From assembly GCA_964613985.1 (NCBI GenBank), contig CAZTJD010000003.1, positions 35,791-99,790 on the forward strand: DNA of 64,000 nucleotides, given 5' to 3'. Made by a program: the position numbers and the translations under genes. This document shows, piece by piece, positions 39,616 to 57,640 of this stretch; positions within the stretch are counted from its first letter, which is position 1; every line of letters begins with the position of its first letter. Under the pieces are notes generated by a model. The model was not told the origin of the DNA and searched no databases. It saw only the letters and a program-made list of their open reading frames with translations. Origin of the DNA: an uncultured Anaerolineales bacterium. Its GTDB lineage: Bacteria > Chloroflexota > Anaerolineae > Anaerolineales > UBA11858.

Positions 39616-40980
<1,365 letters not shown>

Positions 40981-41086
40981 GCAGGTCAGATATCTTTACC
41001 TCAGTTTGGATTAGATCGGGTATTTACCCCTAAGGACCAGAGCAGGATACCACCTCAATTAATCTTCTGCCCGGCAGATAAAAAAT

Positions 41087-41119
41087 ATAACAAGAGTCCT
41101 CTTTGAGGGCTCTTGTTAT
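41087..41119. terminator. Probable bidirectional intrinsic terminator
   Basis: ATAACAAGAGTCCTC-TTT-GAGGGCTCTTGTTAT with A/T-rich flanks, between the convergent gdhA and kinase genes. Confidence 0.75.
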
Positions 41120-41278
41120 TTGTTATGAAATGAGCTGTGCAAGTATTGAAAAAAACTACAAAATTTCATCACAAAGGTGATTACCAGTATCAAAGATGTT
41201 GGGTCGCTGTTCGTACCTGTGGCAAACCCGTGTAAGCTTGGAATTAGGATTTCCGAATTCAATTCCTGGTAATCATTT

Positions 41279-44200
41279 TCATTGCTCCATCAGGCGCCTC
41301 ACCGTTTGATTAAATTCGTTGACAGAAAAAGGCTTTTGAAGCCAATCAACATTACCTGTTTCGAGCACTCTTTGATTATCACTATCCAGGGGATGCCCAG
41401 TAATGAAGAGCATCCGGATTCCAGGCCAACGGATTTGCATCACATTGTATAAATCCATCCCACCCATTTCCGGCATGAAGATATCACTGACGACCAGGGC
41501 AATCTCAACATTCTTTTTAGTTAAGATATCGAGCGCTTCTTTACCATTGGAAGCAGACAAGACCTGGAAATTATTAGCAGCTAGAAAAGCCTGAAGAGCA
41601 GTTCGAGTTGAATCGTCATCCTCAACCAACAACACCGTCTTTCCGGTACCGTCAACCGTTCGAAGGTCAGCGGTGTCACGGCTAAAATCTTGATGTGAAA
41701 TCAACGCTGGGAGAAAAATGTAGAAGCAGGTACCCACTTCCAGTTGGCTGTCGACCTCAATAAATCCCTCATGCTGTCGAACAATACCATAAACCTGAGC
41801 TAATCCCAACCCAGTCCCCTGCCCAACAGGTTTGGTTGTAAAGAAAGGTTCGAAGATTTTCGACTTGTTTTCCAGAGGAATCCCTATGCCAGTATCCCTG
41901 ACCGTAATAGAAATATAATCGCCTGGGGGAATATTCATAAAAGGTGGGGCTTTGTCATGATCACCGATGTGACAATGTTCAAGGTGAAAATCTAATTTGC
42001 CACCTTCAGGCATGGCGTCCCTTGCATTCACTGCCAGGTTCAAAAAAACCTGTTGGAGACGAGTTGGATCCGCCAAAATGATATAATCTCGTTCATCATA
42101 AAATAGGTTCAGTTGAATTGTCTCAGGTAGGGTTCGTTGGAGAAGTTTTAGGATTTCCTTCATGAAAGGAAGCAGATTGAGGGCTCTTTGTTCCATAATC
42201 GAGCTTCGGCTAAAATCTAAGATCTGGCGGATCAAGCTTGAAGCTCTCTGTACCTGTTGTTGGATCACGCCCAACCGTTCTTCGGTGGTAGTGGTTAAAG
42301 ACGGTTCCATCATCAGTAGATCGGTGTAGACGACAATGGCGGCCATGATGTTGTTAAAATCATGCGCAATGCCTGATGCCAGTTGTCCAACAGTAGCCAG
42401 CCTGTCCTGCATTTGGATCCTTTCCTGGATTCCTCGTTCTTGGGTTACATCCCGCAAGGTTAATACCCATTGGACACTTTCGCCCTTGATTTTTCTTGCT
42501 TGTGCTTCATAAATCCCTCTTTCAGGTTCATCAATTGCAACCTCAATTGGAATGGAACTATCCTGGGATTTATATAGATCAGGCAAAGTCATGTCTCCAA
42601 GATGGGTAATTCTCAAGTCTTCAGTTTGCCGAGATATTGCAGCAAGCAGATCTTTTCCTAGTTGATTGCTCAAGAGTAGATGATCATCCTGATCCAACAA
42701 CAGAACACCAACCGGAAGCATCTCAATCAGGCTTTCAAGGCGATATTGTTCCGCTGCCAGTAAATCAACAAGGCGATTTACATCTTCATATCTCCTGACA
42801 TTACTTAGAGCCAAGCCAACCTGTTGACAAATGGATTGCAGCAAATCGAGGTGATCATCAGTAAAGGCAGCTGCCTTATCCTGTAAAACTGTCATCACAC
42901 CTAACAGATTTTGTCCATCCGAGATGGGAGAAACTATCATCGAATGGACTCTCTCGCTGAGATAGGGGATTTCTGCCCAACGCTCATCCTGCAACACATC
43001 ATGAATATTTAAAGCTTTATTGTTTTGGGCAACCCAACCCACGATCCCTTCCCCAATATTCATACGTAGTTCCTTGTCAGGGTCCAGGTGATAGGTTGGA
43101 AGGATTTCTCGGGCATATAATACCTGGAGTACCAGGCAGTTTCCATCCCTGTCGTAAATCCAAACCGCGCCAACATTTCCAGCTAACGCCTGGCAGGTCA
43201 GTTCTAGGGCTTGTTTTAATATTTCTGCCAGATCAAGTGAAACGGCAAGGCCCTGGCTCACATTATATAGCAATGAGATATGACGCCGCTCACTCATTGT
43301 TTGCTCAAACAATCGGGCATTTTCTATTGCCAAAGCGCCTTGATCAGCCAATAAACGGAGCAAACGCAGATCAACTTCTGAAAATGCATGAGGATTTATA
43401 TGGGCAACATTTAGAACTCCAACAACCCGTTCGCTGATTTTCAGGGGGATACCGACAATTGATCCAGTCAAATTTCCTTTTGAGGCTTCCTCTGAAAACA
43501 ATGGATGAGCCCCAAAATCTTCCACTAATATGGTTTCGCCAGAACGCGCTACGCTATACGTTAATCCATGCTGGCGAGGTTGAGAAAATAAGAATCCTCT
43601 ACGTCCGTCTTGCCATAAAGATGATCCAAACTTTAAGTTTTCATTGTCAAAGGTGAAAATGTATGCATCCTGAATATTCGGTATCAGCTCGAAAACCCCA
43701 TTCAGGATTGAATCAAATACAGCTTCTGACTCCAATCTTGCCGTGAGTCCAAGACTCACCTGACGAAGGATTTCCAACTCAGCTGCTCTTTTTTCCTCCG
43801 ATTTGAATAAATTTGTCCTTTCAATGGCAATCGCCATATGACGAGCCAAGGTTTGGACCGTTAATAAGTCTTCTTCGGTGAAAAAATTAACTTTATCGCT
43901 ATCGACCATCAATGTCCCGATCATTTTATTTTGGATAACAACCGGCACCCCCATGAATGAGCGGACATGCCCTGCCCCAGGCAACCATATCCAATCTGGA
44001 TGTTGGCGAACATCAGCAATCATAATTGGATGAAGGTCCTTTGCCATGTTAGCCAAGATACGACTATCCTTTAAAGAGCTTCCCGCTTGGTTTTTAACCA
44101 TTTCATGATCTTTGTAACCGATTACTGCCACAAATGCTGGAGACCCCGTTTTCTCCCATAATAGCACGGAGGCAGTATTATAGATCAACATGCTTTTTAG

Positions 44201-46924
44201 CTGTCCAAGGATCAATTCTAAAATTTGTTCAGACTCCAAACTTGATCCTAAAACCTGTGCAACTTCTTGCAAGGTCTCCGCTTGTCTTCGTGCCTTACGT
44301 TCTGCCTCAAACAGGCGGGCGTTTTCTAATACAACCGCGAATTGAACAGCTAATGACTCGAGGAAGCGCTGATGTGATTCATCAAATGCATTTGGTTGAA
44401 AGGACTGAACAGAAATAGCACCAATTAAATTTGACCTGGATATTAAAGGAACCCCAAGCCAACCATGAACTGGTTTAACGCCTCGAATTGGTTCTATGGG
44501 AAGCGAATCTTGATCTATGTCGTGTACCAGGAGTGGTCTTCGGTTTTCCAGAATCCATCCCGTTAACCCTCCTTCTGATAGGGTATACCGGTTGTCTAAA
44601 AATTCATGAACAGGTTCTTCATGTTCAATGGCAAAAACAATGGAATAAGTTTCATCTCTCGAATTGTAAAGGGCAACAATGAAAGTATCGGGCGACATTA
44701 AATGCTGGATATGTTCGTAAAGGTTCTCCAAAAGAATGCTAATGTCTAGAATGCTGCTGGTAGCTAAAGCCGCATCATATAAGCCTGATAATTCCTGTGA
44801 CCGTCGCTGAGCCTCAAACACAAGGCGCATATTTTCAATTGCAATTGCCAATTGATCTGCCATCGTTTGGAACGCAATCAAGTCATGTCCATCAAATGCT
44901 CCTACATCCTGGCTTTGAACATCAAATACACCTATGACCCGATTCATTATCTTTAAGGGAACGGTCATTTCTGAACGTGTTTCTAGGAGCAAGGGTTGTT
45001 TAAGGTGAAACGGGTCCTTGCTAACATCAGGTGCAATTCGAGGCTGGCCTTTATTGGCAACATATCCTACGATTCCGCGTGCACCTACCTCCAATTGATG
45101 TCCCTGGGACAATAATTGAGCTCCTCTTTCACCAGATGCCGCGGTCAGGATAATATGATTTTTGTCAACATCCATTAAAAAAATACCAGCATAATAAAAA
45201 CCAAAATGCTCGGTGACAAGATCAACCGCCCGTTTTAAGAGACTTTCGAGATCCCTGGCTGTCGCGGCATCCCTGGCAATTTCTGCAGCAACTTGTAACT
45301 GTGTAGCATAACGCTCGATGTTATCAGCGAAGGTTAACAGCCCAAATTCGGCTTCCTTTTGTTTCGTGATGTCACGCCCCACACCTTGGTATTCAATTGG
45401 ATTCCCTTCAGGGTCCAAGATAACTCGATCAAGCCATTCCATCCAGATCAAATGACCATCTGGTAAAAGATGACGATGCTGACTGGATATGATTGGATTT
45501 TCCTTGTTAAGTCTTTCTTGAATTAACTTTAATGTCTGATAATTTTCATTGGAAAGGATATCTTCATGATGCAAGCCAATAATTTCATCAGGGGATTTAC
45601 CTATCAAACGAGCATAAGCTGAGTTGGCAAATGTGATGATTCCATCTGGTGAATAGCTGTTAATAGCCTCGGTTTGATCCTCTACAACAGCACGATAACG
45701 GACTTCACTTATGCGTAAAGCAGCTTCAATCTGCTGTCGTTCCTCAAGTTCTTCTTGGCCCGCCTTATAGAGTCTGGTATTATCGATTGCAATCGCTAAC
45801 TGATCGGCTACAGCGGTCAGTATGTACTGGTCATCGATAGTAAAGTTATTTATTTGTGTACTTTGAGCATCTAAAACACCTATAACCTGATTTTTCACCT
45901 TTATTGGTACAGCCAATTCAGACTTCATTTGCAACTCTGGTATTTTTGCGAAAAACCGATCATCTTTTGTGACATCGCTTACCAACAAAGGCAATCCTTT
46001 TTTCGCAACCCAACCGTTAATTCCTTCAACTCCGATCTTCAAGCGAATTTGACCTTCACGAGATCGCAATGATTCCAAGGAAGACGCACGGAGGACAATT
46101 TCTTCCCCCTCAGCTAGCAGGATATTCACATTGGAAAATCCAAAAGTATCCGTTAAACGTTCAACTGTAATACGAAGCAATTCATTGATTTCCATGATTG
46201 CAGTTGTGTTGTGCCCCATTTCCATCAACAACTCCAGTCGAGTCGCCCGTATTCGGAGCTCTTCTTCTGCATGGATTCGTTCATTTACTTCGTGCTTTAG
46301 TTTTTCTGCAACTTGAGACAGGTCATGATGCCTGTCAAGGGTAATCCATTTTTGGTTATATAAACCGATGATTGCCAACAACGAAGCAACAAGATTGATT
46401 GATAATGGTTCAAAAATATCGTAGAAATCCAGCATCCCATCTGGCATAACCCAAGGTAATGAGACGATTATGGTAAGGTTAATAACACTGAACAGGATTG
46501 TTCCCCAGGCAGGAAGGAAGATCTCACTCATCAACAAGCTTAGGATAAGCATGGTGAGAGAGATCTTTATTTCAGCGAAAACTGGTTGCTGATTGATAGC
46601 GTTCAAGACTGCAAGTGGAATTATCGATGTGGTCAATACGGCAGCAATAATATAGTATCTACTGCGACTGATCCAGTACACCAATAAGGTAATCATGAAA
46701 ATTATGAAAAACTGGGGAAGAAAAGTGCTGTATTGAGGATTGGTAAAACACCTCAAGGTGATCGCAACGAGGAAAATCAGTGCGGTATAAATCAAAAAAA
46801 TAGAAAGAAGATGGGATCGTCGTCTCTGACCCGGATCCGTTAATTTATCAGATGGTTTTGTTAGCCAATCCCAACCTTTAACAATCTTCTTCTTAATTTC
46901 CGTGGACCAAACCACAACAGCCAT
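41279..46924 (-). CDS. Membrane hybrid sensor histidine kinase (TM region, 6 GAF, PAS, HisKA, HATPase, REC)
   Basis: Six GAF ends of the A(I/L/V)AIEN(A)RL type, PAS ending [14 protein letters not shown]-box, [24 protein letters not shown], receiver DIFMP...KPF. Confidence 0.92.
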
Positions 46925-46934
46925 CTTTTTCTTT

Positions 46935-48662
46935 CTATTTTTTCCAATGGTCGAAAAGATCTTTTACTAGATAATAATCACTTCGCCGGAATCCTCGATG
47001 GAGGTAATAACGTCGAGTACCGACAGCAGAAATCACAGCAATCCTCCGGAAACCACGAGTCCTGGCAATATTTTCAACATGGTCTAATAATGCGGTCCCT
47101 AAACCAACGTGTTGAGCTGCGCCATCCTTAGATTCTCCCACTTTAAGTGATTGACCGTACACATGTACCTCTCGAATAATTGCTGCTCTTTGTAAATCTG
47201 TCATGCCAGTATCTGGTGCGGTAGGACCTGGTAAACTCAAACGGATAAACCCTGCCAAGCGGTCATCCGGGGTATCCCAAGAAATGAAATGTTCTTCTGT
47301 GTCTCCAACTTTATAAACCAGATCGTTGATCGAAAGATCTTCAACCTCAATCTGCATGCCGCGCACTTCTCTACAGCGGATGCAGGTACATTTTTCGCGG
47401 CGTTGTTTGAGCTCCAGGTGGATATCCTGCCGAAGACTGGTGCGTTTGTTCCCCTCAACGACATGGGTTGAAGGGATATCGCGAATTACACGATTTACCC
47501 GACAGTAACGAGGAATGGTCGGCTTGATGTCGGCAATTAAATTGATCAATTCTTCCGTGGAATATGGATGATAAGCGCCTACCTGCCAATATTCAAATAA
47601 TTCCGTACCAGCTAAAAGTTGGGTGGGATATATCTTGATCTCATCTGGTGCAAGCAAAGGCCAAAGACGTGTAAAATCTTCTCTATCCGATTCAAGGGTC
47701 GCACCCAGGAGATTGGGCATCCAGTGCAACACAATCTTAAAACCAGAAGCTCGTAACAGAGCAACAGCTCGAACAGAATCCTCTACAGTATGACCGCGGT
47801 TATTAAGGGTCAAGATGCGGTTATCCAAACTTTGAATCCCCATCTGGATTTTCGTGATACCCAAATAGCGAAGCCAAGCCAATTCCTGAAGATTAATCTC
47901 ATCTGGTCGAGTTTCAATGACCAATCCGACATTCTTATGGGTTGCTACTTCGTTTTGATATTGAAGTTCAAGCAAATTCGGCGAATTTCCATGCACATCC
48001 AGGCGCTTGGAAGGTGGAATAGCATCGACCACCTGGTTTTCCACCTCTTCCACTTGTGAATCCTCTTGGTTATATGAACCCTCTGCGTTCATTGCTTCAA
48101 AGCAACGCTGGATGAACCATTCCTGGTATTCCTTCTGGTAAGAATTCCAGGTCCCACCCAAAATAAGCAGCTCGATTTTGTCAGTGGGATGTCCTACTGC
48201 GTGTAATGTGTCGATCCGAGCAATTACCTGTTCATATGGATCATAATTATGATAAAGGGCGCGCATCGCTCCAGGTTCATCCGGTAGATAACTCTTCGGC
48301 ATCCTGACATCCTCCGGGCAGAAGATGCACTTCCCTGGACATGGATAAGGTTTGGTTAATACAGTAACAGTTGTAACCCCGGAAAGTGTACGCGTGGGTT
48401 TCAGCCGTATTTTTGAAAGCAAAGTGGGATCAGGTTCCCATTCTCCTTCTACTACCAGCTGCCGGTATACTTCAACTAATATCGATTTGCCTAAGAACCC
48501 ACCTCCATCAGGCAGAGGATAACGTCTGATGGCTTCGAATACGTTCTCACCGTTCCGTATTCTTTCTAACGCTTTCCGAGCCAAAGCCTTTTTTTCCGGC
48601 GTCAGTTGCTTGGTCTTATACCAAGCCTTTTCTCGAGAAGACAGTAACTTATTAGACATCAT
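46935..48662 (-). CDS. elp3: Elp3 radical-SAM/KAT tRNA U34 carboxymethyltransferase
   Basis: KPTRTLSGV, KPYPCPGKCIFCP, PKSY, DKIELLILGGTW, ETRPD, MGIQS, KIYPT, RVIRDIP, IREVHVYG, QHVGLG, VISAVGTRRYY. Confidence 0.93.
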   Translation of the reverse strand: MMSNKLLSSREKAWYKTKQLTPEKKALARKALERIRNGENVFEAIRRYPLPDGGGFLGKSILVEVYRQLVVEGEWEPDPTLLSKIRLKPTRTLSGVTTVTVLTKPYPCPGKCIFCPEDVRMPKSYLPDEPGAMRALYHNYDPYEQVIARIDTLHAVGHPTDKIELLILGGTWNSYQKEYQEWFIQRCFEAMNAEGSYNQEDSQVEEVENQVVDAIPPSKRLDVHGNSPNLLELQYQNEVATHKNVGLVIETRPDEINLQELAWLRYLGITKIQMGIQSLDNRILTLNNRGHTVEDSVRAVALLRASGFKIVLHWMPNLLGATLESDREDFTRLWPLLAPDEIKIYPTQLLAGTELFEYWQVGAYHPYSTEELINLIADIKPTIPRYCRVNRVIRDIPSTHVVEGNKRTSLRQDIHLELKQRREKCTCIRCREVRGMQIEVEDLSINDLVYKVGDTEEHFISWDTPDDRLAGFIRLSLPGPTAPDTGMTDLQRAAIIREVHVYGQSLKVGESKDGAAQHVGLGTALLDHVENIARTRGFRRIAVISAVGTRRYYLHRGFRRSDYYLVKDLFDHWKK

Positions 48663-48825
48663 TTTAACTCACATAGATTTTACCAATAAAGTCAAGTTGT
48701 AAAGACAAGATATCGTAGTCGGTTAATAATCCACCAAACATAAAAACACAAATTTGACCACTCGAGAGTGCAGCAATTTTAAACGCTTTAGATTTTACGA
48801 TTAGAGAATAAAAAACAACAAGAAA

Positions 48826-48853
48826 GAGCAATTTCGTTTCACTCAATATGACA
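48826..48853. repeat. REP-like half copy
   Basis: GAGCAATTTCGTTTCACTCAATATGACA resembles the 58846-58872 copy. Confidence 0.45.
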
Positions 48854-49022
48854 ACCAATCAATAGGTGTTTCGTTACATTTAACATGACATAGTAAAAAT
48901 GGATATGCAACAGGCGCATCGATCAATATCAGCTCTAATCAAAGGAGTTTCTTTGAACAATATAGGGGATGACCGAAAAAACCTTGCTATGGGATCTTTT
49001 AGGAATTAAAGGATTCCCAGGC

Positions 49023-49028
49023 TATAAT
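49023..49028 (+). promoter_or_regulatory. -10 box, probable leaderless start of the methyltransferase gene
   Basis: TATAAT, then 6 nt, then ATG at 49035; no SD. Confidence 0.55.
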
Positions 49029-49034
49029 TGAGCT

Positions 49035-49892
49035 ATGGAAGATTCTGTACTCCAAAAACTCCTTACCATTAACCGGGAATTTTACCAGACCTTTGCCTCG
49101 GATTTTTCGTCCACCCGAATGAGATTGCAACCGGGTGTGCTAAAAATTTTAACCAGTGTACCTCGCCAATCAAATATCCTGGACATAGGATGCGGAAATG
49201 GAGAATTAGCACATTGGTTGGCTGAAAAAGGACAAAGAGGGGTATATTTAGGGCTTGATTTCAGCCCTGGATTGGTAGAAATCGCTCGAGCCAGACTTAA
49301 TACGAACAGCAAGAAGAAAAAGGGGGAGATCAATCAAGGTGACAGTTTTGATGCTGGTTCTTTCAACTTTCTCCAAGCCGATCTTACATCCCAATCTTGG
49401 GACTTAAAGGTTCAGGATTTTTTAGAATCAAACTTAATAACTAATCGGCTTGATTTTGTCTTCGCTTTCTCCACGCTCCATCACCTCCCGGGAAAAGAAA
49501 TTCAAAGCCGAACTTGTAAAAAAATCCACACCTTGTTGAACGAAAATGGGTATCTCATCCACTCAAACTGGCAGTTTCTTAACAGCGAACGCCTCCGCAG
49601 ACGAATTCAACCCTGGAGTACCGTTAATCTGAGTCAGGATAATGTCGATGCAGGGGATTGTTTATTAGATTGGCGCCAGGGTGGGTATGGGTTGCGATAC
49701 GCCCATCACTTCAGCGAGGACGAATTATTTGCGCTGGCTTTGACAACCGGGTTTGAGGTGATCAATAGTTTTTACTCGGATGGCAAAGTGGAAAATCTTG
49801 GTCTCTACCAGATCTGGAAAAAAATAAAACAGCACACAGGCAACCTTGAAAGAGGATCAGATTCAAATTCCATATGCTTACCCAGCGATTAG
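49035..49892 (+). CDS. Class I SAM-dependent methyltransferase, Trm9/ALKBH8-like
   Basis: FYQTFASDFSSTR, LDIGCGNG, GLDFS, STLHHL, SNWQF, DCLLDW, RYAHHFSEDEL. Confidence 0.75.
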   Translation: MEDSVLQKLLTINREFYQTFASDFSSTRMRLQPGVLKILTSVPRQSNILDIGCGNGELAHWLAEKGQRGVYLGLDFSPGLVEIARARLNTNSKKKKGEINQGDSFDAGSFNFLQADLTSQSWDLKVQDFLESNLITNRLDFVFAFSTLHHLPGKEIQSRTCKKIHTLLNENGYLIHSNWQFLNSERLRRRIQPWSTVNLSQDNVDAGDCLLDWRQGGYGLRYAHHFSEDELFALALTTGFEVINSFYSDGKVENLGLYQIWKKIKQHTGNLERGSDSNSICLPSD

Positions 49893-50354
49893 AAGACCTA
49901 AAATCAAACCAAGCAGAAGGCAGAAGAACGGACCTACCAAGACCAAAAGGGATGGGATGATCAGAGAATCTAGGTAAACTACCTCAGCGGCAAAAATGGG
50001 TTCATTTTCTACAACATATCCACGGTTGCTTAACCAGAAGCGAACCTCTCCCTTTGCAGTGACCCTGCCGCTATTTTGTAAGCGAAAAAATTTTACATTA
50101 CTCGAGGATTCTTCTGCCACCAGTGTGGGAGAAATCATCCTCGGCTTTTCCTCCTCCGTCATTCTTTCGACGAGATGGAAATTTAAATCATCTTTCTCAA
50201 AAGCTCCTTTTTTGATTACCTTTAACTCAAATTGAATCTCCTGACCGATAAAATACGGCCAAAAGGGGAAACGCTTACGCCAAGGATTTATCGGGGAGAC
50301 CTCTATGTCTAATCCATTCCAGTTTCTAAGATGATTGTAAAAGGGCATTTGCAA
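49878..50354 (-). CDS. Hypothetical protein with C-terminal membrane anchor
   Basis: 158-aa ORF just downstream of ftsK with a GAGG RBS and a hydrophobic C-terminus. Confidence 0.65.
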   Translation of the reverse strand: MQMPFYNHLRNWNGLDIEVSPINPWRKRFPFWPYFIGQEIQFELKVIKKGAFEKDDLNFHLVERMTEEEKPRMISPTLVAEESSSNVKFFRLQNSGRVTAKGEVRFWLSNRGYVVENEPIFAAEVVYLDSLIIPSLLVLVGPFFCLLLGLILGLLIAG

Positions 50355-50362
50355 TCCTCAAA

Positions 50363-52723
50363 TTACTCTTCGTCCACTGGTGGAGCTGCTGGTCCATAAT
50401 CCAACACATCGCGAATTTGTGAGCCAGGTTGAGGGGCACCGATGATACCTTTTTCCTCGATGGATTCAATCAGCCTGGCACCACGCGTATAGCCAATACG
50501 TAATCGTCGTTGAAGCATAGAGATCGAAGCCCTGCCTTCACGCCGTATCAGGTCCACAGCCTCATCAAATAAGGGATCAAGTTCTTCTTCAGGTTCCAAA
50601 TCCACAAACATGGGCATTTGCTTAAGTGGTACCCCTCTTGGGATCATATCGGGTACCCCGCCCGATGCCGTAGCTAGCGATAATGGTGTGATATAACCGG
50701 TCTGTCTGTGCCAGAATTGCACCAAGCGCAGCAGTTCCGATTCCGAAACCCAGACACCCTGCAGCCTGACAGGTGCAGCTGCATCCGGGGCCTGGAAAAG
50801 CATATCTCCTCGTCCAAGCAGGCGCTCAGCACCTGGCTGGTCAAGGATGACACGGCTGTCTGTCCCCGATGCAGTCGCAAATGCGATCCTGGCAGGAAAG
50901 TTGGCTTTAATCAAGCCTGTTACAACGTCAACAGAAGGACGCTGGGTGGATATGACCATATGGATTCCAGTCGCACGCGCAAGCTGTGCCATACGGGTAA
51001 TTGTGCGTTCGGTCTCATCTGGCGACAGCATCATCAAGTCTGCCAGCTCATCAATCACAACTACCAGAAATGGGAGCCTTCGCTGGTTCGTTTCATCCAT
51101 ACGATTGTTGTATTCAGAAATATTCCGAGCACCAATCTCAGCGAACTTATGGTAACGCTGGTCCATTTCCCGTGTTGCCCACTGCAGGGCACCGATGACG
51201 CGTTCCATCTCTGTAACCACTGGTACTAACAGGTGAGGAATGCCGTCGTAACCTGTTAACTCCACTCGTTTCGGATCGACCATTAAGATACGCAAATCAT
51301 CAGGGGTATTTTTGATTAGCAAACAGGATATGATCGCATTTACACACACAGATTTCCCAGATCCTGTCGTCCCGGCGATTAAAAGGTGGGGCATCGCAGC
51401 CAGGTCAGCAGCGACAGCATTCCCGGCAACATCCTGACCGAGGGCAAAACGCAGCGATCTGCCATCTAACCGTTTGAAGGATTCGTTTTCTATTCCATCT
51501 CTCAGCGCAACCAGTGTGACAACCTCATTTGGCACTTCAATTCCAATAAATCCCTTTCCGGGCACAGGAGCCTGAACACGAATTCGGGTTGCAGCAAGGG
51601 CAAGGGCAAGGTCGTCCGCTAATCGGGCAATTTTCCCCACCCGAACCCGAGTGCGTCTACCTCGGGTCTCAATGAAATCTGGTTCGACGCCAAACTGGGT
51701 GATGGTTGGGCCACGATTGATCTCAACGACGTGCCCCGGCGCCCCAAAGGAATCCAGGGTCTCTTCAATAACCTGGGCACGATGGCGATCAAATTCATCG
51801 TCGATGGGCATATCCTCACCGATATCTAGAATTTCTTCCAACCGAGGCAGTTGCCATTCCCGGGGAGTGCTTTCATCCCAAAGCGAAGGCGTCGATTTAA
51901 TGGATTGAGGATAAACCTCTATCTGTGGCACGGGAAGGGGCTTGAGCACCGGTTTAAGGGGTTCCCGAGATGGGAAAAACACCTTCCTGCCATTTCGGGT
52001 TGACCATTCTGCCTGGAAATCATCCCAAAAATCTTGAATTCGCAGGATCAAAGGCAGTATCCAGGAAAAGAGTCCCAGTACAGACCGATCCAGGGTAATT
52101 GCAAGGGCGATGAGAAACCAGGCGAACAAAGCTACGAATGTGCCCCCTAATCCCAATCCAACTCGCATGAAATACTGCAACCAGGCCCCGATATACCCAC
52201 CGCCTTTGCCTTCTCTTGCCAAGGCAAGTGCAGCTTCTCTCCCATCGGGAAGTAAAGCGAAGTGCATACTGGTAAGGATAAAGAAGAAAAAAAAGATGAT
52301 ACCAACGCTTCGTTCAATAGAAATTTCTGGCAAGTGATCTGAATTTCTTAAAATCAGCCATATTCCTATAACGAACAGACCTGCTGGAAAAATGAATTCA
52401 CCCCAACCAAAGAGGGTTTTGATCAGATTAATCCACCCTCCCATTATGCCACCTTGTGTTACAGAAACCAACCCAAAGAGCGTCATCAAGCCAACCATCG
52501 CCATGATCACGCCAATGATGTCAAGCTTACGATCCAATGAGAGGTCATTCCAGAAAGACGAAACCGGCAATTTACTTGAACCTGGTTTCCCTCTGGCACG
52601 AGTGCCTGTTTTGCTTGTGGACCGGGTTCCCTTGCTGCTTCCAGGCGTGGAGCCACTTTTACGTGTTCGTGAGCTAGATTTCTTTGATCTAGAAGGTGAA
52701 CTAGATTTCCGCTTTTGTACCAT
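50363..52723 (-). CDS. ftsK: DNA translocase FtsK/SpoIIIE
   Basis: 4TM N-terminus, MPHLLIAGTTGSGKS, DPKRVEL, IDELADLM, TQRPSVDV, GAERLLGRGDML, gamma domain SISMLQRRLRIGYTRGAR. Confidence 0.96.
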   Translation of the reverse strand: MVQKRKSSSPSRSKKSSSRTRKSGSTPGSSKGTRSTSKTGTRARGKPGSSKLPVSSFWNDLSLDRKLDIIGVIMAMVGLMTLFGLVSVTQGGIMGGWINLIKTLFGWGEFIFPAGLFVIGIWLILRNSDHLPEISIERSVGIIFFFFFILTSMHFALLPDGREAALALAREGKGGGYIGAWLQYFMRVGLGLGGTFVALFAWFLIALAITLDRSVLGLFSWILPLILRIQDFWDDFQAEWSTRNGRKVFFPSREPLKPVLKPLPVPQIEVYPQSIKSTPSLWDESTPREWQLPRLEEILDIGEDMPIDDEFDRHRAQVIEETLDSFGAPGHVVEINRGPTITQFGVEPDFIETRGRRTRVRVGKIARLADDLALALAATRIRVQAPVPGKGFIGIEVPNEVVTLVALRDGIENESFKRLDGRSLRFALGQDVAGNAVAADLAAMPHLLIAGTTGSGKSVCVNAIISCLLIKNTPDDLRILMVDPKRVELTGYDGIPHLLVPVVTEMERVIGALQWATREMDQRYHKFAEIGARNISEYNNRMDETNQRRLPFLVVVIDELADLMMLSPDETERTITRMAQLARATGIHMVISTQRPSVDVVTGLIKANFPARIAFATASGTDSRVILDQPGAERLLGRGDMLFQAPDAAAPVRLQGVWVSESELLRLVQFWHRQTGYITPLSLATASGGVPDMIPRGVPLKQMPMFVDLEPEEELDPLFDEAVDLIRREGRASISMLQRRLRIGYTRGARLIESIEEKGIIGAPQPGSQIRDVLDYGPAAPPVDEE

Positions 52724-53167
52724 GACTTTGATAAATGGACAGAGAAGGTTTCAGAACCACAACTGTAATCTGCTTCCTATATCACATTCGGGTTTTCATC
52801 TCAAGGTTGATCGACTCCTGCAGGCGAATTATAGCACAAATGGTCTGTCAAACCGCAAGTGGTCTTCATATAAAGAGAGCTCTCTGGAACAGACTTAAAA
52901 TATGGTTCATTTTATGTTGCAATAGATGCGTAAACGAATTTGCTGGGAAGGAGAACGATCTTGAAGGCAATATGGTTATTCACTCATATACAAAGTAAAG
53001 GTGTTTAATTTGCCCATTTGCGGTAGAATTACCAAACCCAGAACGATAAAAACCACTGTTGTGGATCTGACCATACCCATTAACTTTAGGGTCATACCCA
53101 CACCAAGCCTGAATCCCGGATCTCAAACCCCTATTTTATTACCTAAATTCGACTAAAGGGAACCCAA

Positions 53168-54106
53168 TTGTTTGAAATCACCTTTCTAGGCACCTCCGCT
53201 TCCGCACCTTCCGTTCACCGCGGCCTCTCCGCTCAAGTTGTGAAACATGACGAATACCGCTTCCTGATCGACTGTGGTGAAGGTACCCAAAGGCAGCTCC
53301 TTAAATCTGGCCTGGGTTTCAAACGCCTCAACCGGGTCTTAATCACGCATGGACACCTGGACCATATCCTGGGCTTGGGTGGATTACTTTCCACTTTCAT
53401 GCGCTGGGAAGCGATTGAAGAAATCGAAATCATGGGCGGTCGCAGCGCCCTGGCGCGGGTAGGAGACCTGCTGTTTGGCGTGGTGCTGCGAGGAATTGAA
53501 CCACCGGTAGACTTGAACCTTCGGGTGATTAAGCCAGGTGTGATTTTTGAGAATGATGATTTCACGGTTACTGCCTTTCCGGTATCCCACCGCGGACCGG
53601 ATTGTTTTGGATATGCTTTCGAAGGGAAACCCCGACGCCCCTTTCTGCCGGAGAAAGCAGAAGCCCTGAACATACCCCCAGGACCATGGCGCAGAGATCT
53701 TGTCGCAGGAAAACAAGCGACAATACCAGATGGACGAAAGATCGAACCGGACCAGGTATTGGGACTTGAACGCCCGGGAGCAAAACTGGTGCACGTCGGA
53801 GACGCAGGACAGGTGAGGAATCTAGTTGACCCGGTTCGTGATGCGGATGCGTTGGTGATCGAGGCGACCTACCTGGAACAGGACGCGGAAATGGGGCAGC
53901 GCTTTGGTCACCTTACTGCTCACCAGGCTGCTAAACTGGCTTTCGAAGCTGGTGTAAAAAACCTGATCCTCACCCACATTTCCCGCCGTTATCGGGAAAG
54001 AAATGTGCTGGAAGAGGCTAGAGTCATTTTCCCCGATGTGTATGTGGCCCGTGATTTTGATACTTACCTTATCAAAACAGGGGAGTGCCTAAAGATTAAC
54101 GAATGA
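53168..54106 (+). CDS. rnz: Ribonuclease Z (tRNA 3' endonuclease)
   Basis: FLGTSAS.P, DCGEGTQRQ, THGHLDHILG, exosite IPPGP, EATY, GHLTA, LTHISRRY. Confidence 0.93.
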   Translation: MFEITFLGTSASAPSVHRGLSAQVVKHDEYRFLIDCGEGTQRQLLKSGLGFKRLNRVLITHGHLDHILGLGGLLSTFMRWEAIEEIEIMGGRSALARVGDLLFGVVLRGIEPPVDLNLRVIKPGVIFENDDFTVTAFPVSHRGPDCFGYAFEGKPRRPFLPEKAEALNIPPGPWRRDLVAGKQATIPDGRKIEPDQVLGLERPGAKLVHVGDAGQVRNLVDPVRDADALVIEATYLEQDAEMGQRFGHLTAHQAAKLAFEAGVKNLILTHISRRYRERNVLEEARVIFPDVYVARDFDTYLIKTGECLKINE

Positions 54107-54146
54107 AGATTGATGATTGACAATTAAAGCGTGAAGATTAAGGTTG

Positions 54147-55715
54147 ATGGTTGATAATCATAACCCTAGTGTTGAGGGGACAAACAACCAGGTATTGTTA
54201 AGACACCTGGTTTTTGTGGTTTTTTGGACGCTTGTATTCACCCTTGCTTATGCCCAAAGCCCATTATTCACCTCCAACCAGAACCAATACTTTGTCCATG
54301 GCCTGGCAGAGGCAGGTTATGGGTACCTCGGACAGGATTGGCTGGCGAATACACTCGACCCAACCCCGGTTTTTAGCGGGTTGGTATCCTCGACCTACCG
54401 CATCATCCCCTGGATGCCTGTATATTATTTCCAATTCACCCTGCTGGCTGGGATTTACCTGTTTAGCTTATTCAGCATCCTGGTGGAGATTTTTCACCTC
54501 GAAGGTTCACCGTTAAAACATTGGGGCTTCCTGCTGGGGTCGGTGTTGCTGCATTCGGCTGCCCTTCGCTACCTGGTGGTGCGCATCTTCAACCAGGATT
54601 GGGTATACCTGTTCGATGGCGGGGTTGCCGGTCAACGCCTGTTGGGGTCGGTGCTGCAGCCCAGTACCTTTGGGGTGTTCCTGCTGCTCGCAATCGCCCT
54701 GTATCTACGAGGATTCCTGACAGGCGCAGTGGTCAGCCTTGCTCTAGCCTCGACTTTCCACCCGACTTACCTGTTCAGTGCCGGGATATTAACCTTGATC
54801 TTTATGGCCCTTGAATTTGCCAGGGAGAAACGGCTTGTTCGTCCCCTGACGGTTGGCGCTGGTGCACTACTGGGGATTGCCCCGGTATTGGTCATCACGT
54901 TCCGAACTTTTGGAGGGACAGATCCTTTACTGGCAGCACGAGCACGGGAACTGCTGGTAACCTTCCGAATCCCCCACCATGCCATCCCAGCGTTATGGTT
55001 CGATGGGTCCGTGGTAGTCAAATTCGCCTTCCTTCTCCTGGCATTATTTCTGACCAGAAAGACCCGCTTGTTCCATTTCTTGTTTTGGCCTGCCATTGTG
55101 GCATTGTTGGGGACAGCGATACAGATCCTCAGCGGTAGTGATGTGCTGGCGCTTCTTTTCCCCTGGCGACCTTCAACCTGGTTAGTACCGCTCTCTACAG
55201 GTGTTGTGCTATTTTGGAGTCTGGAACAACTCTGGCCCCAAGTTGAGAAAAACTTATCCTCAAAGCTGGTCATCTCCTTGACATTTATTGGTGCACTTGC
55301 CCTGGCTGGGACCGGTTTGGCGAAGTCGCTCGTGGAGTACCAAGAGCGGGTGAACGGAAAAGACCGTCCGATCATGGCCCATATCCGCTTATCGAAACAA
55401 CCTGGGGAGGTTTACCTGATCCCCCTGGATATGCAGGATTTCCGCCTGGAGACCGGGGCACCTGCCTACGTGGAATTCAAATCCATCCCCTACAAAGATA
55501 CCGATGTACTGGAATGGTATCGCCGTGTCTCGCTGGCAGGTAGGCTGTACCAAGCCCCATACAAGCGTAGTGGCTGCCAGATCATATCCCAACTGGCTGA
55601 AGAAGGCGTCACCCACGTCATCCTGCCCTATGACCACGCTTTGCAGAAATGTGAAAACCTGAAGAGGGGATATTGGGATTGGAATTATGTATTGTATGAG
55701 GTTAGGGATAACTGA
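54147..55715 (+). CDS. Multi-pass membrane protein (DUF6798-like, possibly GT-C fold)
   Basis: About 12 hydrophobic segments, SNQNQY...DWLANT.DPTP, FHPTY, RIPHHA, C-terminal FKSIP...EWYRR. Family recalled from memory. Confidence 0.55.
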   Translation: MVDNHNPSVEGTNNQVLLRHLVFVVFWTLVFTLAYAQSPLFTSNQNQYFVHGLAEAGYGYLGQDWLANTLDPTPVFSGLVSSTYRIIPWMPVYYFQFTLLAGIYLFSLFSILVEIFHLEGSPLKHWGFLLGSVLLHSAALRYLVVRIFNQDWVYLFDGGVAGQRLLGSVLQPSTFGVFLLLAIALYLRGFLTGAVVSLALASTFHPTYLFSAGILTLIFMALEFAREKRLVRPLTVGAGALLGIAPVLVITFRTFGGTDPLLAARARELLVTFRIPHHAIPALWFDGSVVVKFAFLLLALFLTRKTRLFHFLFWPAIVALLGTAIQILSGSDVLALLFPWRPSTWLVPLSTGVVLFWSLEQLWPQVEKNLSSKLVISLTFIGALALAGTGLAKSLVEYQERVNGKDRPIMAHIRLSKQPGEVYLIPLDMQDFRLETGAPAYVEFKSIPYKDTDVLEWYRRVSLAGRLYQAPYKRSGCQIISQLAEEGVTHVILPYDHALQKCENLKRGYWDWNYVLYEVRDN

Positions 55716-55843
55716 CCAGGGACCAGGGATTGAGATGATGTATCAGGGATAAGTGGAGAGGGTAGAGAATTCAGAATTTTATCTTAACTCATCTGCAACA
55801 TGAAAGTGGAAATGATGATTATTGGTCGAGTTGGTACTCGATA

Positions 55844-57640
55844 TCATGCGGCAGGTGAGACAACTTCAGCGAGGAAGACTTCGAAGGGGGCTAGGGTGAG
55901 GGAGGAGAGAGGATAGGTGGTTCCAAGCTGGTGGTGGGTGGAGAAAGAGCATTGGATAGCGGCATGTTTTTTCGCTGGGATGAGAAAGGTGAGATCCAAA
56001 TAGTGGGTGTCCTTGGAGAAATTGAGGAGGACCAGGTGGGGGGGTTGGTTTTGGAGTTGGCGGATATAAGCCAGGATGGATTTGATTTGTATGTCATCCC
56101 GAAGGTCAATGGGCTGATAAGACCCAATTTGAAGGGCTGGTTTCTCCCGGCGAAGATGAAGTAAGCACTTGTAATAACAAAGTAGCGAATCGGGGTCTTC
56201 GAGCTGCTCATCCACATTGACGGTCTGGTGGTAATCCGGGTTCACTGGCAGCCAGGTGCGGATGCCTGGGGGGCTGAAACCGGCGTTGGGTTCGTTAGCC
56301 CACTGCATCGGAGTGCGGCACCGGTCACGACCGCGCTCCAGGGCGAGGTTCAATGCTTCATAAGAAGTCATACCCTGTTTCAAGGCTGCCTCATAGACCC
56401 ACAGGCTGACCTGGTCCCGGACCTGGGACAGGTCATCGAGGCGGTGATTGGTCATTCCGACCTCCTCGCCGTAATAAAGGAAAGGGGTTCCAGGCAAAGT
56501 GAGCAGCATCGCCAGGGAGACGCGCACCAGTTCCTGGTCGTGGACTCCGTCAGAGTGGGCTTGGATGGTGCGCGGTCGATCGTGGTTCCCCAACATGTTC
56601 GACTGCCAGCCCCCAGGTGGGATATTCGCCCATCGCTGACAAAGGTTTTCCCGGATAAGCCTTGGTTTGAGTTGCCCAATATTCATCAAGGGGAAGTTAA
56701 AGACCATATGCAGGCAATCATGACCATCCCCAAGGAATTCCAAGCGGTCGCTCTCGCCGATCAGAAATCGATCATCATACTCGTCCACCAAGGCGCGCAG
56801 TTCCTTCATCAAATCGAACCCACCGGGCTGGTTGACCTGGTATTGGAAGATGCGAGCCTGGTCGCCATGCTGTTTGCGCTGCTCGCTACTAGCAGAGAGC
56901 AGATAGCTGGTCAGGTCACTTTGAGTGCGTTCCACAGGGTGGTCAGGCAGGCCAGGGTGTTCATAGAGGGTGTCGATGGCGTCCAACCGGAATCCGTCTA
57001 CTCCCAGGTCGAGCCAGAACCGGGCGACATCCCACATGGCTTCCTTGACAGCAGGATTACGCCAGTCAAGATCAGGCTGTTCCTTGAAGAAGAGGTGGTA
57101 ATAGTATTCGTCAGTGATAGGGTCAAGGGTCCAGGCGGAGCCTCCGAAGGCAGAGAGCCAGTTATTTGGAGGGAGCCGATCTTCAGTTATGCCCTCCCCC
57201 TTTCCTTCTCTTCCAGAGGCAGAGGGGATTTTTCCGGGATGCCAGACGTACCAGTCCCGCTTGGGGTTGTTCTTGGAGGACCTCGATTCCTGGAACCAGG
57301 GGTGCTGGTCGGATGTGTGATTGAGGACCAGGTCGGTGACGACCTTGAGGCCGCGGTGATGGACTCCATCCAGAAAGCATTGGAAGTCTGATAAAGTACC
57401 GTATTCAGGATTTACGGCGCAGTAGTCGGTGATGTCGTAGCCGCAATCCACCTGGGGGGAGGGGTAATGGGGGGAGAGCCACAGGGCATCGACGCCCAGA
57501 TCGCATAGGTAGTCAAGTTTTTCGATGATGCCTTGGAGGTCGCCAATCCCGTCGCCGTTCCCGTCGGCAAAGCTGCGAGGGTAGATCTGGTAGAAAACAG
57601 CGCGGTGGTGCCAGGGCGAGGTAGGGGATGAGATGTTCAT
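55844..57640 (-). CDS. GH13 alpha-glucosidase / oligo-1,6-glucosidase
   Basis: YQIYPRSFADGNGDGIGDL, DLVLNHTSDQHPWF, EQPDLDW, GFRLDA, IGE, NHD, YYGEEVGM, RDRCRTPMQW. Confidence 0.93.
   Translation of the reverse strand: MNISSPTSPWHHRAVFYQIYPRSFADGNGDGIGDLQGIIEKLDYLCDLGVDALWLSPHYPSPQVDCGYDITDYCAVNPEYGTLSDFQCFLDGVHHRGLKVVTDLVLNHTSDQHPWFQESRSSKNNPKRDWYVWHPGKIPSASGREGKGEGITEDRLPPNNWLSAFGGSAWTLDPITDEYYYHLFFKEQPDLDWRNPAVKEAMWDVARFWLDLGVDGFRLDAIDTLYEHPGLPDHPVERTQSDLTSYLLSASSEQRKQHGDQARIFQYQVNQPGGFDLMKELRALVDEYDDRFLIGESDRLEFLGDGHDCLHMVFNFPLMNIGQLKPRLIRENLCQRWANIPPGGWQSNMLGNHDRPRTIQAHSDGVHDQELVRVSLAMLLTLPGTPFLYYGEEVGMTNHRLDDLSQVRDQVSLWVYEAALKQGMTSYEALNLALERGRDRCRTPMQWANEPNAGFSPPGIRTWLPVNPDYHQTVNVDEQLEDPDSLLCYYKCLLHLRREKPALQIGSYQPIDLRDDIQIKSILAYIRQLQNQPPHLVLLNFSKDTHYLDLTFLIPAKKHAAIQCSFSTHHQLGTTYPLSSLTLAPFEVFLAEVVSPAA

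Follow-up and report, generated by a model that had tools for sequence, protein, structure and literature searches.

A gene for Elp3 stands head to head with a gene for a Trm9-like methyltransferase in a 64,000-nucleotide stretch of DNA from an uncultured Anaerolineales bacterium (GenBank assembly GCA_964613985.1, contig CAZTJD010000003.1, positions 35,791 to 99,790 of the forward strand). The whole of this stretch is called the window here, and its positions are counted from its first letter. Together the two genes probably encode an archaeal/eukaryotic-type pathway for modifying the wobble uridine in two steps, by which uridine 34 (U34) of tRNA would be converted to 5-carboxymethyluridine (cm5U34) and then to 5-methoxycarbonylmethyluridine (mcm5U), and to which the product of mnmA may add a 2-thio group. 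So far, no bacterium has been shown to use the archaeal/eukaryotic-type Elp3-Trm9 pathway. The interpretation given in a preliminary description of the window, made from the letters alone, is supported as a comparative-genomics prediction: the pair would be a divergent bacterial variant of the known Elp3/Trm9 pathway. The pairing of elp3 with the methyltransferase gene is far from chance, and the variant occurs throughout the Elp3-bearing Chloroflexota examined, never together with MnmG.

The elp3 gene (46935-48662, minus strand) encodes a protein of 575 amino acids with a radical S-adenosylmethionine (SAM) domain followed by a GNAT/lysine acetyltransferase (KAT) domain, a predicted tRNA uridine-34 carboxymethyl synthase. 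The gene for the Trm9-like class I SAM methyltransferase (49035-49892, plus strand) encodes 285 amino acids, predicted to act as a tRNA (carboxymethyluridine34-5-O)-methyltransferase. The two genes point apart and are separated by an AT-rich intergenic region of 372 bp (48663-49034), the presumed site of both promoters. The preliminary description, which had seen a full Elp3 and a SAM methyltransferase about 370 bp away on the opposite strand, was accurate in this respect, and the methyltransferase motifs that it quoted are all found in the translation in the order stated: FYQTFASDFSSTR, LDIGCGNG, STLHHL, SNWQF, DCLLDW, and RYAHHFSEDEL. Inspection of the intergenic sequence showed TATAAT immediately 5' of the methyltransferase ATG; a promoter scan of 48663-49034 gave two sites against 1.6 expected from shuffled sequences and is uninformative. 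An Rfam search of positions 40000-56000 gave no family match, and no tRNA gene was found in a search of the whole window. All fifteen sequencing runs listed as containing this DNA are DNA runs labelled salt marsh metagenome, and none is an RNA run.

Homology of the methyltransferase and of Elp3

Three sets of sequences were compared: A1, a 28-member profile of the window methyltransferase family; A2, eighteen eukaryotic Trm9 proteins; and A3, shorter methyltransferases (about 220 amino acids) of a Dehalococcoidia type. A2 can be regarded as a genuine Trm9 set because it matches Yarrowia lipolytica Trm9 (5cm2_Z) at E 2.5e-83. In hhalign, A1 aligned with A2 over 191 columns (99.66%, E 2.4e-25), beginning at the N-terminal helix FY..FA..FS.TR and ending at SFY..G near the C-terminus, and the window methyltransferase as a single sequence aligned with A2 over 190 columns (E 1.3e-21). 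As a control, the two methyltransferases of this genome that score next matched Trm9 at 8.4e-12 (98 columns) and 1.3e-9 (129 columns), in both cases through the Rossmann core only. When the Trm9 profile was run over this genome, the window gene came first (54.4 + 29.1 bits, E 2.2e-14), followed by a match of 31.5 bits (2e-7), and the window methyltransferase was the only protein of the genome matching the profile outside the Rossmann core. A search with A1 among longer proteins, in a library of 5.8 billion sequences, gave three matches, one of which is an insect ALKBH8 (E 1.2e-13) that aligns with A1 over 206 columns in hhalign (99.25%, E 5.3e-20). The automatic JGI name TRM9 is carried by 20 of 120 listed homologues.

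As judged from these comparisons, the window methyltransferase is a distant homologue of Trm9/ALKBH8 along nearly its whole length, with 24-30% identity between its family and Trm9. The Trm9-like motifs align in order, as had been expected from the preliminary description, over about 190-206 columns that include the N-terminal FS.TR helix and the C-terminal W, RY.H and EL motifs. Clustering with unrelated small-molecule methyltransferases, which the preliminary description had named as a refuting outcome, was not observed, and among the proteins of its genome the window methyltransferase is the best Trm9 match by a wide margin. An AlphaFold2 (AF2) model of it has a predicted local distance difference test (pLDDT) score of 87.2; with this predicted structure, Foldseek placed Trm9 5cm2_Z at rank 4, with the top TM-score (0.80) and the lowest root-mean-square deviation (3.7 Å) among the matches listed. 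The top fold match, Methanosarcina mazei 3sm3, also aligns through the C-terminal HHF.E.EL region and may therefore be an archaeal relative with the same kind of substrate.

The residues on which yeast Trm9 depends were then compared; here and below, published papers are cited from the parts of their text that were available. The activity of yeast Trm9 is lost on mutating R29, D72, H116, W145, W168, R241, Y243 or N271, although Y243A keeps about 10% of the activity; R29 and H116 are proposed to position the cm5U carboxylate, W145 to stack on the uracil, and N271 to read it (PMC4678810, Létoquart et al.). The counterparts of R29, H115/H116, W145, W168, and R241 are kept in the window protein as R28, H149/H150, W179, W213, and R221. 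These residues and Y222 are invariant in all 28 family members, and the same seven are invariant in a joint alignment of the family with the Dehalococcoidia type and eukaryotic Trm9. The motif I Asp (yeast D72, essential for SAM binding) is kept in the Anaerolineae type (D50); in the five Dehalococcoidia sequences (L093-L097) Asn stands there without exception (LLN.GC).

A Lys-rich insertion of about 20 residues (residues ~88-110; 49296-49361) follows strand 3. It is common to the window protein and its close relatives P0002, P0005, and P0007, partly also P0044 and P0114, and most of the family is without it. The confidence of the predicted model is lowest near this insertion (blocks 66-75), and that side of the fold faces Trm112 in Trm9 (PMC4678810). 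The last ~20 residues of the window methyltransferase are unique to it. No fusion with Elp3 or Trm112 was found among the three matches of the longer-protein search, which is weak evidence according to the warning of the tool itself. Possible fusions were noted: family members (P0121 and P0122) of 547 amino acids (with PF04480) and 521 amino acids (with metallophosphoesterase domains); a methyltransferase match within a 1016-residue open frame in one genome; and Elp3 within a 787-residue open frame in another (fusion candidates G170:C5:114347-115078 and G161:C18:10154-11578).

The window Elp3 scored 471.1 bits on NCBIfam TIGR01211 (cut-off 350) over residues 80-569, and it contains the Pfam domains Radical_SAM, Radical_SAM_C, and GNAT (Acetyltransf_1) in that order, with a CX3CX2C iron-sulfur cluster motif that reads CPGKCIFC. 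Its best solved relative is Elp3 from Dehalococcoides mccartyi (DmcElp3, 5l7j, E 1.4e-103). The window protein has a Lys/Arg-rich N-terminal extension of about 79 residues, absent from DmcElp3, and this extended N-terminus is kept in its relatives, most of whose loci give tblastn alignments that begin between query residues 1 and 17. A basic N-terminal extension is described as typical of archaeal and eukaryotic Elp3, as aiding tRNA binding, and as missing from DmcElp3 in the available text of PMC6367351. The formation of cm5U34 was shown in vitro for archaeal Elp3, and for D. mccartyi Elp3 a weak tRNA-triggered acetyl-CoA hydrolysis is reported (PMC6367351, PMC7663514).

Conservation of the gene pair in Chloroflexota

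At least 490 relatives were found in a scan of one genome per species, and the counts of loci given here refer to the best 80. These are all from Chloroflexota, mostly metagenome-assembled genomes (MAGs) of Anaerolineales, with one record titled only 'uncultured bacterium'. Elp3 is encoded directly upstream of the methyltransferase, on the opposite strand, at 74 of the 80 loci. The gap between the two tblastn alignments is at most 226 bp in 63 of these 74, so that it is usually shorter than the 372 bp of the window. Among the six loci without an Elp3 neighbour, the upstream flank is shorter than 610 bp at three, and the other three (L066, L073, and L081) are truly without Elp3 within 6 kb. The linkage of the methyltransferase to elp3 is therefore conserved, and the lack of conservation that the preliminary description had named as refuting did not occur.

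The distribution of the two genes was surveyed in 301 Chloroflexota genomes, each at least 80% complete, the window's own included. Elp3 was counted when over its cut-off, the window methyltransferase type at E <=1e-15, A3 at E <=1e-20, and MnmG at E <=1e-100. Elp3 is present in 59 of the 301 genomes. The window methyltransferase type occurs in 34 genomes, all of them Elp3-positive, and the A3 type occurs in 25, which are exactly the other Elp3-positive ones. A Trm9-like gene of either type is found in 59/59 Elp3-positive genomes and in 0/242 Elp3-negative genomes (0/237 without five genomes flagged as unpublished). The co-occurrence of elp3 with the methyltransferase, which the preliminary description had proposed to survey, is strict across the sample. 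A divergent pair spaced by no more than 2 kb is found in 27/34 genomes with the window type and in 24/25 with the A3 type, 51/59 together; several of the exceptions lie at contig ends.

In the Dehalococcoidia type, the A3 methyltransferase is directly divergent from elp3 in four of the five genomes sampled. In the larger survey, a divergent Trm9-like neighbour of Elp3 is present in all three genomes of one genus with genomes of about 1.5 Mb (G021, G033, and G091) and in 21 of 22 other Dehalococcoidia-type genomes. A3 displays the motifs IA..WY.FRH, HH, VWN..Q, VPW, RYYH, and RN, and its top PDB match is Trm9 (E 3.6e-20). In profile comparison it matched A2 at E 1.1e-33 and A1 at E 2.6e-19. Among 1.84 billion proteins, the A3 profile found 156 cluster representatives at E <=1e-30; of 20 clusters that were looked up, two bore organism names, both of DPANN archaea (Pacearchaeota; Woesearchaeota/Diapherotrites), which is a slender hint of an archaeal source.

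MnmG, which together with MnmE modifies the same uridine in other bacteria, occurs in 131/301 genomes but in 0/59 of those with Elp3, so that MnmG and Elp3 are found together in 0/301. In the window's own genome, which is 95.1% complete, neither MnmG nor MnmE was found over the cut-off, and the best matches resemble other flavin adenine dinucleotide (FAD) and GTPase proteins. MnmA is encoded in this genome (373 bits), in 57/59 Elp3-positive genomes, and in 290/301 overall. It was also observed that 111 of the 301 genomes are without Elp3 over the cut-off and without MnmG at E 1e-100 or better, though MnmA is nearly universal.

Around the pair, the neighbouring genes vary. RNase Z is encoded by rnz at 53168-54106 on the plus strand (NF000801, 266.9 bits, cut-off 252). 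The preliminary description had pointed to this tRNA-maturation gene at about 3 kb; it does lie 3.3 kb beyond the methyltransferase gene, but this proximity is conserved in none of the 80 related loci. It was rejected as a pathway neighbour, as rnz, ftsK, and a 158-residue open reading frame (ORF) are without a homologue above 60 bits in 80/80 loci. Since the pair is kept while its surroundings change, the presence of rnz is incidental. The 158-residue ORF (49878-50354, minus strand) is convergent with the methyltransferase gene, overlaps its last 15 bp, and encodes a hydrophobic C-terminus; it gave no Pfam or NCBIfam match. The next ORF, of 786 amino acids (50363-52723, minus strand), looks FtsK/SpoIIIE-like by eye from a GTTGSGKS Walker motif. 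On the other side, an ORF of 1881 amino acids (41279-46924, minus strand) resembles by sequence a hybrid histidine kinase of the multi-GAF/PAS kind that ends with or contains a receiver domain. Because it begins 10 bp past the elp3 stop on the same strand, it may be co-transcribed with elp3. A strong homologue of it (414-830 bits) is found downstream of elp3 in 9/80 related loci.

Proposed pathway and alternative explanations

The proposed pathway can be described as follows. By radical SAM chemistry and with acetyl-CoA, as established for its family, Elp3 would place a carboxymethyl group on C5 of U34 to form cm5U. The Trm9-like enzyme would then move a methyl group from SAM to the carboxylate of cm5U to form mcm5U, with the same Arg/His pair and the same aromatic residues by which yeast Trm9 holds cm5U in position. 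Finally, MnmA, a bacterial thiolase whose gene lies elsewhere in the genome, may introduce a 2-thio group into some of the tRNAs to form 5-methoxycarbonylmethyl-2-thiouridine (mcm5s2U), which would make the pathway a hybrid one. Given MnmA in addition to the Elp3/Trm9-like pair, the end product predicted on Glu/Lys/Gln-type tRNAs is mcm5s2U. The divergent arrangement would permit co-regulation of both genes from one intergenic region.

Several points weigh against this pathway. No curated model names the methyltransferase: Pfam gave generic methyltransferase domains only, and NCBIfam gave 29 weak matches, none over its cut-off. In sequence searches of the PDB, Trm9 5cm2_Z came 19th with the single sequence (E 0.055) and 7th with the A1 profile (34.9 bits against 43.7 for the best match), and the C-terminal half alone gave no Trm9 but one irrelevant match at E 1.1. 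In Foldseek, the uncharacterised Methanosarcina methyltransferase 3sm3 and METTL6 stand above Trm9 by E-value. At the position of Y243, the window protein has Ala223 and most family members have Val. For N271, hhalign and MAFFT place the counterpart differently; Asn254, which immediately precedes the last strand of the model, is the likely one, and this position is Asn in only 22 of 28 aligned members. Since the genomes compared are relatives, the perfect co-occurrence reflects few independent lineages; the pattern holds for two or more sequence types and in several classes. In addition, a review of 2020 states, in its available part, that direct evidence for 5-carboxymethyl-type uridines (xcm5U) in bacteria is lacking (PMC7663514). 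The Trm9 likeness claimed in the preliminary description needs correction in that the family is a divergent branch for which Trm9 is not the top PDB sequence match and in which Y243 is not kept.

One variant of the proposed pathway is that the methyltransferase acts only as a holoenzyme with a Trm112-like protein, as Trm9 does in yeast and Haloferax. The preliminary description had suggested that the pair may work without Trm112, as none was seen in the window. The genome does have a Trm112-like gene, outside the window at G000:C1:82212-82331, so that Trm112-free working is possible but not indicated. The product is a PF03966 protein of 72 amino acids with a CPxC...CxxC zinc knuckle (23.7 bits, cut-off 22), and it is 57-70% identical in eleven genomes of the same order. 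PF03966 is present in 30/34 genomes with the window methyltransferase type, and it is known that Trm9 requires Trm112 in eukaryotes and that the Haloferax Trm9-Trm112 complex is functional and makes mcm5U (PMC6144793, PMC4678810). On the other hand, PF03966 is common whatever the Elp3 status (180/301 genomes); all four genomes of genus g4, which are 97-98% complete, have Elp3 and the methyltransferase with no PF03966 match at E <=0.001; and no Trm112-like gene lies within 6 kb on either side of the methyltransferase in any of the 80 loci. A complex prediction for the methyltransferase and Trm112-like families gave a score of 0.00 and a mark of 0.32, without controls, and is evidence neither way. 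An obligate holoenzyme is a real possibility, although we regard it as rather doubtful.

Three further explanations would give the methyltransferase another role. It may act on tRNA or on the Elp3 product by another reaction, at another atom or on a side-chain intermediate, so that the product is not mcm5U. The divergence of the family, the loss of Y243, and the additional stretches that separate core strands or lie in the C-terminal lid would fit this, and the enzyme of the 5-carbamoylmethyluridine (ncm5U) branch is described as unknown even in eukaryotes in the available text of PMC6367351. However, the residues proposed to hold the carboxylate and to stack on the uracil (counterparts of R29, H115/H116, W145, and R241) are invariant, and the sister Dehalococcoidia type keeps the VPW, RYYH, and RN motifs almost exactly as in Trm9, which makes another reaction unlikely. 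It is less likely still that the enzyme methylates small molecules or proteins, has nothing to do with tRNA, and stays beside elp3 by inherited synteny only. Its top sequence and fold matches do include uncharacterised and small-molecule methyltransferases, and other sources name some relatives UbiE or 'SAM-dependent methyltransferase', but such a protein would not be expected to follow Elp3 in two sequence types with no occurrence in Elp3-negative genomes, to stay in the pair while all other neighbours change, or to match Trm9 at full length well beyond the other methyltransferases of its genome. A CmoM-like enzyme acting on uridine 5-oxyacetic acid (cmo5U) in place of cm5U would share the same chemistry, a methyl ester on a wobble-uridine carboxylate, as in E. 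coli CmoM. In this genome, however, the best CmoA match is 38.1 bits (cut-off 193.3) and the best CmoB match 31.1 bits (cut-off 275), so that neither is found and the substrate for such an enzyme is removed; moreover, the gene tracks Elp3 and not CmoAB. A CmoM-like role is therefore scarcely credible.

The proposed Elp3/Trm9-like pathway can also be placed in a broader scheme, which is more tentative. Anaerolineae and Dehalococcoidia may have swapped MnmE/MnmG for an archaeal-type elp3-trm9 cassette that, with MnmA, would yield mcm5s2U34, and the Anaerolineae enzyme would be either Trm112-independent or the first client of a bacterial Trm112. This scheme as a whole has perhaps a little less than an even claim to be correct. 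To our knowledge, mcm5s2U34 has so far been documented only in eukaryotes and archaea.

Significance and comparison with known systems

Elp3 is a general feature of an entire order of Anaerolineae. Anaerolineae include cultivable species, and the pair is present in a MAG that bears the label Anaerolinea thermophila (L087); with cultivable Anaerolineae that have the pair, the question of bacterial mcm5(s2)U would become one of straightforward mass spectrometry. The pair may also offer biochemistry a compact, possibly single-subunit Elp3/Trm9 system, and it provides a test case for the swap of a core decoding-modification pathway between domains of life. In the available text of PMC7663514, bacterial Elp3 is described as restricted to Dehalococcoides, and the difficulty of growing this genus is given as the reason why no bacterial xcm5U derivative has been shown. 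The available part of PMC5372719 states that, in bacteria, genes resembling the eukaryotic methyltransferases that depend on Trm112 could not be detected. No title or abstract reporting a bacterial Trm9 was found in the literature, the scope of this search being titles and abstracts, with supplementary files and Glatt et al. 2016 (PMC5018218) outside it.

In comparison with MnmE/MnmG (followed by MnmC), the target (C5 of U34), the role in decoding, and the origin of the 2-thio group from MnmA are the same, whereas the enzymes are unrelated and the side chain made there is 5-carboxymethylaminomethyl or 5-methylaminomethyl (cmnm5/mnm5). In comparison with DmcElp3 (5L7J), the window Elp3 has the extra basic N-terminal residues, about 79 in number, and an insertion in the radical SAM domain, and the partner of the Dehalococcoidia-type Elp3 is a shorter methyltransferase (~220 amino acids) that is nearer to Trm9.

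Yeast Trm9-Trm112 (compare 5CM2) and the methyltransferase domain of ALKBH8 share with the window protein the class I SAM fold, the N-terminal (V/F)Y..(I/F)A..FS.TR helix, and GCGNG, as well as the HH pair after strand 4, W...(Q/N), (V/L)(P/D)W, and RY.H.F..EL. Unlike them, the window protein shows low identity (the range given above), Ala/Val at the position of Y243, an uncertain counterpart of N271, extra segments, and the further insertion of about 20 residues. It is also without the oxygenase and RNA recognition motif (RRM) domains of ALKBH8, and the 2-thio group would come from MnmA and not from Urm1/Ncs6 as in Trm9 systems. Compared by description, archaeal Trm9 (Haloferax HVO_1032 with Trm112) provides a prokaryote in which a stand-alone Elp3 and Trm9 make mcm5U (PMC6144793, PMC5372719). 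In another archaeon, Sulfolobus solfataricus, likewise compared by description, elp3 and trm9 are clustered, as they are in the window (PMC5372719).

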